This document shows positions 2,840-64,000 of a DNA stretch of 64,000 bases, one piece after another. The notes beneath the pieces were generated by a model that searched no databases, was not told the origin of the DNA, and was given only the letters and a program-made list of their open reading frames with translations. The DNA is taken from the NCBI GenBank assembly GCA_046484055.1, contig JAWOBY010000048.1, forward strand, positions 4,596-68,595. Reading direction: 5' to 3'. How positions within the stretch are numbered: position 1 is the stretch's first letter; each line of letters begins with the position of its first letter. The stretch comes from Candidatus Woesearchaeota archaeon. GTDB lineage: Archaea > Nanobdellota > Nanobdellia > Woesearchaeales > UBA12501. The position numbers and the translations under genes are program-made.

Positions 2840-3600
2840 CTATTTCCCCTCTGTCCTGTTCCCACTTTGTCTTTTCCCCCCTTGATCTTCTTCAGGAAAC
2901 CCATGAGCGCGTAGGCCTCTCTTCTTGTCATCATGCTCTTGCCTATCAGCCTTTTCCACAGTTTCTTCTGGGTGTCTCTTTTCTCTTCTGTGGCGAAGTC
3001 CATGCGCTCGAGCACATCATCAAGTATCCTTTCTATCTGTCTCTTCTCCTTCACGCCTATAGGAGCGATACCTTCTGTTATCTTTCCCTTTCCGCTTCCT
3101 GTTCTTGAGTGAATGATGTACATCACCACAGCCGCGGCATGGCTCAGGTTCATCGCGGGATACTTCCTTGTTGTGGGTATTGCTGTTGTGAAATCGCACC
3201 TGCTGAGATCATCATTCGTCAGGCCGTATGATTCATTGCCGAACAATACTGCAATCCTTAATCTTCCTTTGGTCTGTTTTATGCTTCCTATCCATCCGGC
3301 GAGCTCCTCGGGACTGAGGGGGCATCTCGGGAGGTTGTAGTCAGTCCCTAATTTTGAGATCGTGCCGATGACATAATCATGCCTTTCAGCTATACTGCTA
3401 AGACTCTCCACTTCAGCATTTTTGAGAATGTCCTTGGCGTGCGATGCCCGGTCCATGGACTCCTTTGAAAGGTGGTCGCATTCCGGATTTGAGAGTATCA
3501 GGCGGCTGAATCCGAAGTTCTTCATGACCCTTGCCACAGCGCCTATGTTGCCGGGGGTTACCGGCTTGACGAGTACTATCGATATCATGCGCGGAATCAC
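2836..3600 (-). CDS. SpoU-class RNA 2'-O-methyltransferase (TrmJ-like)
   Basis: VLVKPVTPGNIGAVARVMKNFGF ... LFGNESYGL ... IPT..KYPAMNLSHAAAVVMY are SPOUT motifs. The gene overlaps the downstream gene by 4 nt. Confidence 0.8.
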   Translation of the reverse strand: MIPRMISIVLVKPVTPGNIGAVARVMKNFGFSRLILSNPECDHLSKESMDRASHAKDILKNAEVESLSSIAERHDYVIGTISKLGTDYNLPRCPLSPEELAGWIGSIKQTKGRLRIAVLFGNESYGLTNDDLSRCDFTTAIPTTRKYPAMNLSHAAAVVMYIIHSRTGSGKGKITEGIAPIGVKEKRQIERILDDVLERMDFATEEKRDTQKKLWKRLIGKSMMTRREAYALMGFLKKIKGGKDKVGTGQRGNR

Positions 3601-10545: not shown

Positions 10546-10780
10546 TTTCACCTTTTTGGACTGTACTGTGGGTTTTTCATGCGGTCCTTTTCGCAGGCAT
10601 GTTGAACCCTGCACCCCATACAAACTTTTTACCACTGATTAAGAATAACTAATATATAAAGTTTTCTGTTTTTTACCACTTAATAGTTAATATTATTTGG
10701 TGCTGTTGGCAGTCACAACCCATAATTCTGATCCCCTCTTGTTGGTGATGCAGGCTGTCAGGATACAAAAGCCAGAATAA

Positions 10781-11180
10781 TAAAAATTTGACCATTATCT
10801 TGTCAAAACCTAGCGGTTTTTCCCCTTTGTGTTCAACTGAAATCATTTAAACAGTTGAACACAACGTATAAGCAAGCCCTAACCACACCTTAAAAGGTGA
10901 GGTATTAACGGATTTGTACTTTACATGGTCAAATTTTTAGTCTTGAAAATTTCTCCCCTAAGTCGAAATTTTCAATAAGCTTTATTTGGGGTAATGCCTT
11001 TATAATGCCTCCAGAGAAGGTCAGGAGCGTCTGCAGTGGGTTGTGCTGGAGGATTAGGAAGGCCCCCCGTGGAAAGGATTTGTTGGGGGTGGTTGAGAAA
11101 ACAGAACCAATCAGGGGGGCCTTTGAAAATGAATATTCTGCCATTGCAGGACATTCGGTCTTGCATGGCATTGTTTTTTT
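10781..11180 (+). ncRNA. candidate structured non-coding RNA (family unknown)
   Basis: The region has no convincing ORF.
- A 15-bp long-range helix (10781-10795 / 10925-10939) encloses hairpins at 10827-10864 (13 bp) and 10805-10820 (6 bp).
- An 11-bp hairpin sits at 10943-10975.
- A 7-bp helix pairs 11008-11014 with 11046-11052.
- A 10-bp GC helix pairs 11059-11068 with 11114-11123.
- A terminal hairpin at 11140-11169 is followed by T7.
- Two G-U pairs are valid only on the + strand. Confidence 0.35.
11140..11180 (+). terminator. hairpin plus T7 run (terminator-like)
   Basis: GCCATTGCAGGAC attcg GTCTTGCATGGC forms 12 bp with one bulged T and one G-U pair. It is followed by attgTTTTTTT. Further T runs lie downstream (11201-11208). 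Confidence 0.45.
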
Positions 11181-39135: not shown

Positions 39136-39150
39136 GTATATTATTTCCAC

Positions 39151-39239
39151 AAAGCCGAAAACTGAAACATTTATGTAGCGAAAATCAGGGATTTTCTGGG
39201 TTTGTTAGACAAGCTAACAAACTTTCAGATGAAGGCTTT
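39151..39239. other. structured module M1
   Basis: The outer helix pairs AAAGCC 39151-56 with GGCTTT 39234-39, and CTGAAA 39162-67 with TTTCAG 39223-28. It encloses hairpin GAAAATC-agg-GATTTTC (39180-96) and hairpin TTTGTTAG-acaag-CTAACAAA (39201-21). Confidence 0.5.
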
Positions 39240-39249
39240 TGGAAAGCTT

Positions 39250-39427
39250 AAAAATCCGCTGTCAATACAATCGCCGTCAAACTGAAACAACAGAAAATAT
39301 TTCATATTTTCTTAGTTCCAAAACCTTCGGTTTTGAAACCTCATAAAAATGCAAAGCATTTTTAGGACGCCAAAAATCTATGATTTTTGAGCGTTTAGGT
39401 TTCAGTCAGGCGATTGTGCGGATTTTT
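39250..39427. other. structured module M2
   Basis: The composite outer helix has three segments:
- 10 bp: 39250-59 / 39418-27.
- 9 bp: 39267-75 / 39409-17.
- 8 bp: 39281-88 / 39399-406.
It encloses four perfect hairpins with 3-nt loops:
- 39292-312 (9 bp).
- 39319-35 (7 bp).
- 39345-63 (8 bp).
- 39371-89 (8 bp). Confidence 0.55.
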
Positions 39428-39449
39428 TTGATTTTATCTCTCTTATTCA

Positions 39450-39571
39450 GGCAGCAACAACAATGGATTCATACACGGTCAAAGCCTTCGGCTTTGCCCT
39501 ATTCGTAAAGGAAAAAACCACACTGCGTATGGTTTTTTCCTCTACACTCAGTATTCATCCTTGTTGCTGCC
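39450..39571. other. structured module M3
   Basis: The outer helix is 11 bp (39450-60 / 39561-71), then 4+4 bp (39465-74 / 39551-60). It encloses CAAAGCC-ttc-GGCTTTG (39480-96) and an 11-bp hairpin GGAAAAAACCA / TGGTTTTTTCC (39510-40). Confidence 0.5.
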
Positions 39572-39576
39572 AACGG

Positions 39577-39730
39577 GGCGGTGATGATGGCGCTGGCGAG
39601 GCGGGGGATGGTTGCCGAGCGTAGTGAGCGCAACTAAGGAAATCTCTGATTTCCTGTTCCCCCCTACGGGGTGGCGAGTAGGGCTCCGAACATAGTGAGG
39701 AGACCGTCAGCCGCCATAATCATCACCGCC
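39577..39730. other. structured GC-rich module M4
   Basis: The outer helix is 12 bp (39577-88 / 39719-30), then 4 bp (39589-92 / 39712-15), then 5 bp including one G-U (39593-97 / 39706-10). Inside are hairpin AGGAAATC-tct-GATTTCCT (39637-55) and two paralogous hairpins (39611-34 and 39682-705) with 11-nt loops GAGCGTAGTGA and GAACATAGTGA. Confidence 0.5.
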
Positions 39731-39800
39731 AAAAACATTAAGAAATAATTACAGACCAATGTTGTTGCTGCCTGCAAAAGACTATTAGAGAACTACTTAT

Positions 39801-56479: not shown

Positions 56480-56947
56480 TCATTTTGTGACTGGCAACCC
56501 CTCCCCGCTCATGAATCCCTCTTTCTTTATCTCATCCACTATGTAGTAAATGTCCTTGGATTCTATGTCAAACTTCTCGTCCATCCTCTCCATAAACTCC
56601 TCGAGCTCCTTTATATGCATAAATATGCCCTCCACAAGGAAGTCGAAGTTGTTGTTTATCTTGTACACTGAATTGACACTCTCCTGCTTCGAGAGGAAGG
56701 ACTTCAGCTCATCCCTCTGCTCCTTCTTCACCTTCAGCATGAGGTTGGCCCTTGTGGTATAGCCGAGCCTGCTGAAGTCTATGATGGCTGCGTGCTTCTT
56801 TATCAGGCCGTTCTCATGCAGCTTTATCCTGTCAAACAGTGTGGAGACAGGAATGCCGGTCTCACGGCTCATTGTGGTGAGATTCTTCCTGGCGTTGCTC
56901 CTCAACTGGGTTATTATGACCATATCCCGGTCTTTCATGGCGTACAC
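56480..56947 (-). CDS. Lrp/AsnC-family transcriptional regulator
   Basis: DMVIITQLRSNARKNLTTMSRETGIPVSTLFDRIKLHENGLIKK is the HTH. The C-terminus has the RAM-like fold pattern. Confidence 0.8.
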   Translation of the reverse strand: MYAMKDRDMVIITQLRSNARKNLTTMSRETGIPVSTLFDRIKLHENGLIKKHAAIIDFSRLGYTTRANLMLKVKKEQRDELKSFLSKQESVNSVYKINNNFDFLVEGIFMHIKELEEFMERMDEKFDIESKDIYYIVDEIKKEGFMSGEGLPVTK

Positions 56948-63887: not shown

Positions 63888-64000
63888 ACCCTCTGCACCT
63901 GAAGTCCTCATATAAATATTTGATGCATACAAGGGGTCTGTCCCAAATCTCGCTTTTCCTGAGGAAAAGCTCGGGTCAGCGGCCGGCTCGCGCCTGCTTC

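Follow-up and report, generated by a model that had tools for sequence, protein, structure and literature searches.

Why should a short word appear three times within a few hundred nucleotides of an archaeal spacer, placed in such a way that the first copy can pair with either of the other two? This is the question raised by the intergenic spacer 39136-39800 of the window (the whole stretch of DNA analyzed here, 64 kb), a region of 665 nt free of ORFs. We have found the 11-mer GGCAGCAACAA as three exact matches inside 325 nt and nowhere else in the window. Direct reading of the sequence places the 5' arm word CAGGCAGCAACAACA at 39448-39462, its inner 3' complement TTGTTGCTGCC (11 nt) at 39561-39571 and a distal complement, TGTTGTTGCTGCCTG (15 nt, perfect), at 39760-39774. 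If one mismatch is allowed, the outer pairing extends to 39448-39466 with 39756-39774, i.e., 18 bp over 19 positions. The 5' strand of this longer pairing, CAGGCAGCAACAACAATGG (39448-39466), is common to both pairings. A repeat search of the locus recovered the outer pair as arms of 26 nt with 88% complementarity and the inner pair as arms of 19 nt with 84%. Both approaches agree with an earlier note on this DNA, made from the sequence alone, that had described the three copies with an inner pairing of 11 bp and a perfect outer pairing of 15 bp. The two 3' copies of the arm word form in addition a direct repeat of 11 nt, 39561-39571 being identical to 39762-39772.

The same note had considered the arrangement very unlikely by chance. 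By our own arithmetic, about 0.03 exact matches of an 11-mer are expected per 128 kb, counting both strands, so that three copies in 325 nt are far beyond chance, as had been claimed. Over the whole 1.44-Mb assembly the 15-mer is found at this locus, plus one match with one mismatch elsewhere that, judged by its context, is due to chance. In the source genome the arm word is thus restricted to a single locus, and the evidence that it belongs to a multi-copy family comes from relatives. Two readings had been proposed for the three copies, an RNA that toggles between a short-range and a long-range helix, or a MITE-like element bounded by terminal inverted repeats at 39448-39774.

The spacer is located between two convergent genes. 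Its left neighbor is a cytidylyltransferase/FAD-synthetase-like gene on the + strand and its right neighbor an amylo-1,6-glucosidase (GDE_C) gene on the - strand, both with their 3' ends facing the spacer. The predicted folding is much stronger than that of shuffled sequence on both strands, with z values of -9.4 for the + strand and -16 for the - strand. Rfam, at the gathering score, gave no match in the whole 64-kb window, and at E <= 10 the matches within the locus were weak and judged to be due to chance. A search for tRNA and tmRNA found nothing.

We think it likely that the three copies of the word are the arms (closing-stem or terminal-inverted-repeat motifs) of modular hairpin-forming repeats that populate the intergenic spacers of Woesearchaeales. 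BLAST comparison of the spacer with the source genome plus 40 relatives gave matches in 24 genomes (a distribution also given, for the same search, as 24 of 41 relatives), with different segments of the spacer matching at different places. The upstream part of the spacer (39141-39436) contains the modules M1/M2, other hairpin-repeat families for which BLAST against the source genome itself found up to about 20 partial copies. Downstream of them, M3 would be a complete element, M4 an element of a second family located directly 3', and 39756-39774 an extra 3' arm. About 6.7% of the source genome is sequence repeated elsewhere in the genome, a figure that includes diverged paralogous genes. High-copy IS elements were also considered for this genome and rejected, the long repeats being diverged paralogous housekeeping genes.

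The M3 family: fold, strand and distribution

M3 (39448-39573, about 125 nt) is a complete member of a structured interspersed repeat, recognized over its full length by the covariance model R1 with 145 bits; the strand on which its fold appears to be selected is the minus strand. The consensus fold starts with a closing helix of 11 bp (P1), formed by 39450-39460 and the inner 3' arm at 39561-39571. It continues inwards as two helices of 4 bp, GGAT (39465-39468) with ATCC (39557-39560) and ATAC (39471-39474) with GTAT (39552-39555). A three-way junction follows, bearing the hairpins P2 (39477-39498) and P3 (39505-39545). P2 is a covarying stem with a loop that changes in length among copies, and P3 a long A/T-rich stem that also covaries (for example GGA/TCC to TGT/ACA).

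An alignment of 19 M3 copies showed compensatory changes in 21 of the 44 pairs. We have repeated the analysis on 44 independent copies from metagenomes, unused in building the model, and here 33 of the 44 pairs had changed on both sides, with 93.4% of the cells paired. None of 500 shuffles reached the pairing values observed in these metagenome copies, and when the partners were slid by 1-3 columns, as a control, pairing went down to 40-50%. The sequence of the stems is unconstrained provided that pairing is kept. In the closing stem, the five pairs at the outer end vary freely across lineages (GGCAG, AAAAA, CCCAC, TTCCA and others), the outermost arm bases being the most variable part and not the most conserved. 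The inner part of the same stem, CAACAACA/TGTTG, and the junction strands (UGAGU, GAAUA and GU on the minus strand, with 5, 5 and 2 nt) are near-invariant. Perfect terminal stems of 9-19 bp were found in 50 of 53 M3 copies. Covariation had been proposed in the earlier note as a way to tell the two helices apart, and the answer favors the inner one: this helix, which shows compensatory change in 10 of its 11 pairs among the 44 metagenome copies, closes the M3 repeats and is conserved and covarying within the family.

The deviations from perfect pairing are distributed unequally between strands. With the copies oriented as the + strand of the window, A.C mismatches are more numerous than G.U pairs, 38:6 in the genome copies and 46:20 in the metagenome copies, and A.C mismatches in the + strand become G.U wobbles on the complementary strand. 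The antisense RNA was predicted to be the more stable one in all 78 M3 copies (mean of -60.5 vs. -49.9 kcal/mol), a result that is not independent of the wobble counts because the strand rich in G and U always folds better in silico. Neighboring ORFs share the orientation of this antisense strand in 34 of 52 cases. From these sequence patterns we infer that the M3 fold would be selected on one strand, as RNA or ssDNA, and that this strand is probably the minus strand of the window.

The invariant junction strands, the covarying hairpins and the wobble asymmetry point to selection acting on a folded single strand, and this would also suit a family of functional RNAs in place of selfish DNA.

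Three copies of M3 are present in the source genome, the one described here and those at C35:12519-12649 and C71:49603-49738. The search for further copies of the word that the earlier note had suggested had a different outcome in the source genome, with the single locus mentioned above, and in its relatives: the arm word GGCARCAACAAYA gave 70 matches in G011 and 30 in G016, with 0 for a control word. These are genomes of a sister genus; the BLAST matches there cover 39450-39571, and dozens of full M3 copies could be recovered. At the level of the order, R1 identified full-length M3 in 27 of 301 Woesearchaeales genomes. These belong to 25 genera, and the copies scored in each carrier genome range from 1 to at least 11. 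An exact pattern scanned against 185,579 species genomes recovered 35 M3 copies, in three MAGs deposited as Candidatus Woesearchaeota and Nanoarchaeota; a further 18 matches were single ones in unrelated bacteria and are taken as chance. The identity of these carriers places the source organism among the DPANN archaea, in the order Woesearchaeales. A more specific pattern retrieved 44 metagenome stretches, in which 50 matches to the model corresponded to 44 distinct M3 copies. A specific pattern had 0 matches among the viral contigs of IMG/VR, and the two that a looser pattern gave there were not accepted by the covariance model; carriage by viruses was rejected.

All of the 35 M3 copies examined are intergenic, located between ORFs. 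We have also considered whether the element could be a coding mini-gene, given the ORF at 39463-39624 and the ORFs that run through other copies. The length of the P2 loop differs by 2, 6 and 8 nt among M3 copies, and because these shifts are not all multiples of three the mini-gene was rejected and M3 is non-coding.

M4, shared arms and the distal copy

Directly 3' of M3 is found M4 (39577-39730), a second GC-rich family of structured repeats, with copies in G009, G011, G014, G016, G024 and metagenomes; the segment 39587-39720 gave BLAST matches in G009, G011 and G024. The core is conserved, and the closing stem covaries from one genome to another: it reads GGCGGTGATGAT/ATCATCACCGCC in the present copy and in G014, GCACGCCACCATGG... 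in G009 and GCCAGCCATGG... in G024, and in G011 and G016 it is GGCAACAACAATGG/CCATTATTGTTGTTGCC, the same word as in the M3 arms. Comparison of M4 copies with and without the block delimits a sub-module of 48 nt made of two hairpins (39611-39658, GTTGC...GCAAC TAAG GAAATC...GATTTCC TGTT), which is missing from many M4 copies. Direct reading of four loci of G011 and G016 (L065, L037, L029 and L068) located the sub-module within an arm, flanked by a direct repeat of TGTTGTTGC. The word shared by M4 and M3 and these placements of the sub-module indicate that several module families make use of the same arms and that modules can be placed one inside another. M4 is located directly 3' of M3, in the same sense, in 10 of 83 distinct M3 copies, including copies from other families of the order. 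Here it is followed by the AT-rich spacer AAAAACATTAAGAAATAATTACAGA (39731-39755, read directly), and a similar 'xACATTAA' spacer could be read 3' of M4 in relatives (L062, L064, L066 and L067).

The distal arm CCAATGTTGTTGCTGCCTG (39756-39774), detected both by reading the sequence and by the repeat search, pairs with the 5' arm over 15 perfect bp and at 18 of 19 positions overall. It matches the inverted 5' arms of the G011 and G016 M3 copies at 17 of 17 positions, and the 3' end plus flank of the copy at G016:C225 at 19 of 20. An extra arm of the own word within 350 nt was found for 9 of 54 M3 copies (17%), the number of arms per cluster varying from 1 to 5 among loci, and analogous trailing arms are present at L062, L065, L066, L067 and L183. 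Among the ten M3-M4 dimers, two have a clear trailing arm after M4 (this locus and L183) and two a decayed one (a paralogue on the metagenome contig Ga0247727_10000167, and G016:C212). In L183, which belongs to a distant lineage and is located on the same Ga0247727_10000167, the arms of M3 are TGGAAAACAACAA; M4 comes next, followed by TGTTGTTTTC, a trailing arm that covaries with the 5' arm of this M3. At G016:C253 (L062), M3 and M4 are followed by an AT-rich spacer, with ATTGTTGTTGCC at the position of the trailing arm. M3, M4 and an arm, in this order, are found again in distant lineages.

We conclude that the distal copy at 39756-39774 belongs to the modular system as an additional 3' arm. 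Most simply, it would have originated by duplication or recombination at the arms as M4 came to be beside M3. Installation of the M4 block, or its entry by recombination, may have duplicated the 3' arm of M3 itself, and the direct repeat of 11 nt mentioned above would then be explained. Alternatively, the extra arm could be the stump of another arm-bounded element. In G011 there are also tandem solo arms with a period of 56 nt, and we considered a CRISPR-like array, which was rejected since the 'spacers' are homologous between loci.

The coexistence of two possible partners for the 5' arm has a clear thermodynamic outcome. When 39441-39781 is folded without constraints, the outer helix forms on either strand, and a fold made to keep the inner helix is less stable by 8.6 kcal/mol (+ strand) or 8.7 kcal/mol (- strand); at equilibrium the probability of the outer helix is 0.997 and that of the inner helix about 0.

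These figures bear on two other ways of understanding the locus. One is that 39448-39774 (327 nt) is a single composite MITE, with inverted arms of 15-19 bp and M3 plus M4 as cargo, inherited or moved as a unit. Agreement with this comes from the outer helix as thermodynamic winner, from the repetition of the order arm, M3, M4, arm at G016:C253, from the G011 composites bounded by arms that carry other cargo (L065-L068), and from Ga0247727_10000167, with its covarying trailing arm and the decayed paralogue on the same contig. Indeed, the covariation at L183 could mean that the composite and its outer helix are an inherited unit. We consider it an unlikely description nevertheless, because two clear and two decayed trailing arms are few for ten dimers, the extra arm is missing at 45 of the 54 M3 copies, the source genome has no second copy of the 327-nt unit and target-site duplication was not seen. 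The match at L183, taken alone, would by our own estimate be expected by chance about 0.04 times in the set of copies searched. Far less credible is an RNA switch, in which the 5' arm would toggle between the short-range and the long-range closing helix to regulate something. The two mutually exclusive partners do exist, and transcription of the + strand would form the inner helix first, which the more stable outer helix could later displace. But the gap of 8.6-8.7 kcal/mol leaves the inner helix with a probability of about 0, so that the comparison of alternative energies suggested in the earlier note reveals no bistability. The three-arm layout is missing in most family members, with the outer partner beside just 9 of 54 M3 copies and 1 to 5 arms per cluster, and the entire spacer is lacking at the orthologous site of G001. 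Besides, there is no downstream gene to control, since the locus is between two convergent 3' ends. Covariation of the outer helix, looked for as a feature of the family, was seen in one lineage only (L183). When a single arm word is used throughout a lineage, any cluster of modules offers alternative pairings, and we regard these as a by-product of the modular repeats and not as a regulated toggle.

Spacer growth, mobility and comparison with known systems

The spacers that carry these repeats are expanded. The gap between the cytidylyltransferase and the GDE_C genes is of about 20-35 nt in G001, about 324 nt in G009 and 665 nt here, and the G001 and G009 spacers between the same convergent pair have no similarity to this one. 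Similarly, three M3-bearing spacers of G011 have 560-600 nt vs. 75-160 nt for the orthologues in G014, G001 and G015. Overall, at sites that lack the repeats the orthologous spacer is shorter by a factor of 4-30, in comparisons in which the sequences outside genes are too diverged to align; for this reason no precise empty site was found among the orthologous spacers. No strain-level alleles could be matched by an exact 22-mer scan of metagenomes and an exact protein look-up. M3 copies are often located at contig ends, and fragments and solo arms are frequent.

We have found no target-site duplication in the flanks of about 50 M3 copies, and none is seen at the flanks of 39448-39774 (ttatt and caaaa), as had been noticed before. 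The search for an autonomous partner took in three families, Y1_Tnp, TnpB and DDE_Tnp_1, none of which tracks M3. Among 29 genomes with M3, 15 have Y1_Tnp genes, as do 7 of 30 that lack M3, and neither Y1_Tnp nor RAYT was found in the genomes with the highest copy numbers (G011, G016, G175, G020, G147 and G163). TnpB was found in 4 of 59 genomes. A TnpB omega-RNA or an IS200/IS605 end were rejected on these figures, TnpB being so rare and Y1_Tnp not tracking M3. DDE_Tnp_1 genes are common, and those inspected, at five of the six fetched loci, are not flanked by the arms. An IS4/IS5-type autonomous partner was also discarded, the DDE genes near M3 in G091 and G147 not being bounded by arms. The MITE-like reading of the earlier note therefore has to be divided. 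The word does serve as terminal inverted repeat in a family that is multi-copy, non-coding and intergenic, but the unit is the M3 of about 125 nt and not the stretch of 327 nt, and no target-site duplication, matching autonomous element or precise empty site was found.

With these data we propose that elements of the M3 and M4 type may be selfish and non-autonomous, that they would spread without target-site duplication and that their folded form would be single-stranded (RNA or ssDNA) and complementary to the + strand of the window. Much of what has been described could also be expected if M3, and likewise M4, were functional structured RNAs produced from the minus strand (with a protein-binding or catalytic junction, or as a UTR element), the copies being genes or cis-elements. 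The junction is invariant and the stems covary across the entire order, the wobble asymmetry favors one strand, the antisense is more stable in 78 of 78 copies (-60.5 vs. -49.9 kcal/mol), the neighbor genes are co-oriented in 34 of 52 cases, and there is neither a target-site duplication nor a transposase. A role of this kind appears improbable given the patchy presence of the family (27 of 301 genomes) and a copy number that goes from 1 to dozens between sister genera, with 3 copies here and at least 35 in three sister-genus MAGs. The frequent copies at contig ends, fragments and solo arms, together with the expansion of the element-holding spacers relative to their orthologues, also argue against it, and the support from antisense stability is not independent of the wobble counts. 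More speculative still, and to our judgment less probable than a functional RNA, is that M3, perhaps with M4, represents a new structured nucleic acid class of Woesearchaeales, a small ribozyme or a platform for a protein of the host or of a mobile element. The arm word would then be a docking helix for nesting or copying without a classical transposase, and the outer helix a real higher-order assembly, which would explain its covariation in a distant lineage. The reading of modular hairpin-forming repeats is the one that we maintain in what follows.

The genomes of DPANN archaea are very small, and yet about 6.7% of this one is repeated (diverged paralogues included) and the spacer studied is built entirely of short structured repeat modules. 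A census of prokaryotic MITEs placed one Woesearchaeal genome among those with the highest MITE densities in archaea (PMC11602168). The M3 family is now defined in its ends, fold, invariant junction, folding strand and distribution along the order, and this definition, together with the shared arm word, explains the puzzling signals of 'alternative helix' and 'hyper-structured spacer' in these genomes. The R1 covariance model can be used to mask or annotate such elements. The question posed by these elements is what recognizes or copies a repeat without target-site duplication and without a matching transposase.

Our full-text search of the literature retrieved no description of the M3 family. 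These elements work like REP/BIME or MITE, but without the target-site duplication, without the autonomous partner of a MITE and without the cognate RAYT of a REPIN. The REP/BIME and REPIN elements of Proteobacteria (with the Y1 HUH transposase RAYT) are, like M3, short extragenic palindromes that form multi-module intergenic mosaics, with compensatory evolution of the stems, no target-site duplication and a copy number that varies among relatives. They are hairpins or doublets of 20-40 nt, whereas M3 is a three-way junction of 125 nt. A REPIN has its RAYT, in contrast with the highest-copy M3 genomes, where Y1_Tnp/RAYT is lacking, and M3 has an archaeal host, of the DPANN group.

Prokaryotic MITEs, such as the Correia/CREE elements of Neisseria, ERIC or SM1-SM4 of Sulfolobus, resemble M3 in size (100-150 bp) and in being non-coding and intergenic, with terminal inverted repeats and many copies. 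As in the repeats described here, their same termini are found on different internal sequences. Unlike them, M3 has no target-site duplication, its outermost arm bases are the most variable, its internal hairpins covary and the three transposase families examined (Y1_Tnp, TnpB and DDE_Tnp_1) gave no autonomous element bounded by these ends.

The hammerhead-type small ribozymes share with M3 the topology only, a three-way junction in which the strands at the junction are conserved and the helices covary freely, and small ribozymes are often associated with interspersed repeats, another likeness to M3. Identity with the hammerhead or another known ribozyme was rejected, as the junction of M3 is UGAGU, GAAUA, GU vs. 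CUGANGA, GAA, H and Rfam was empty at E <= 10 apart from the chance matches mentioned above.

The BOX elements of Streptococcus pneumoniae are modular boxA-boxB-boxC repeats. Like the repeats described here, they use a small vocabulary of units with strong predicted structure and are found in transcribed intergenic regions beside genes. Their sequences and folds are unrelated to those of Woesearchaeales, in which the modules have closing stems of their own and nest in other modules or in arms. M3 is a new family of the REP/BIME/MITE kind.

Possible flanking signals around the repeat modules

A TATA-box-like motif, (C)TATAA(A/C)TTATA(C/T), adjoins the closing-stem word, or arm, at the 5' flank of about a dozen M3 copies of the sister-genus genome G011, loci L034, L075, L026 and L074 among them. 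Read on the apparently folding strand, this motif lies just downstream of M3 and faces the next gene, that gene being co-directional in 21 of 30 cases.

On the minus strand of the window, which is also the strand of the GDE_C gene, the distal arm is directly followed by TCTGTAATTATTTCTTAATGTTTTTG (39731-39755). This stretch is rich in T, ends in T5 and is located approximately 45-70 nt beyond the GDE_C stop codon, a sequence context suggesting that GDE_C transcripts may stop ahead of M4 and M3. In the M1/M2 half of the spacer, a run of seven T (39422-39428) was found after the closing helix of M2, and it resembles an oligo-T terminator of the archaeal type that would serve the plus strand gene.

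Nested and neighboring repeats, and an IS200-type element

A sub-module of two hairpins (39611-39658 in the window) is nested within M4, and many M4 copies are without it. In both sister-genus genomes, G011 and G016, the same sub-module was found inserted in arms, with a 9-nt direct repeat, TGTTGTTGC, on its flanks.

The M1/M2 half of the spacer (39141-39436) is made up of other hairpin-repeat families, of which the genome under study has as many as roughly 20 partial copies. Several of these copies are located at the ends of contigs C1, C59 and C17, and therefore the M1/M2 repeats are probably the cause of breaks in the assembly. Three further segments of the window (10772-10979, 56622-56896 and 63911-64000) are also repeated elsewhere in the genome, the last one, at the window end, with up to 18 other copies.

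Outside the window, the genome under study (G000) has a single IS200-type Y1 transposase gene with GC-rich subterminal hairpins (G000:C25:9062-9490) and, on another contig, a miniature derivative of approximately 177 nt (G000:C46:26866-27042) that consists of the left and right IS ends joined, with 97% and 93% identity to them. The right end of the IS carries CTGAAACC...GGTTTCAG, the 8-mer stem word being identical to that of the M2 closing helix.

Tandem arrays beside an M3 copy and of solo M3 ends

Also outside the window, the M3 copy at G000:C35:12519-12649 and a GGCTAAATCC mini-hairpin are directly followed by a tandem array of about five (C/G)CAGTGAGACACAAC(C/T) units, which lies some 100 nt downstream of this copy. 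In G011, solo inverted M3 5' ends of about 33 nt are arranged in tandem with a period of 56 nt at L066 (G011:C62, ~3126-3251) and L028 (G011:C45, ~1005-1185). The likeness to a CRISPR array is superficial, since the 23-24 nt between the solo ends are homologous from locus to locus.
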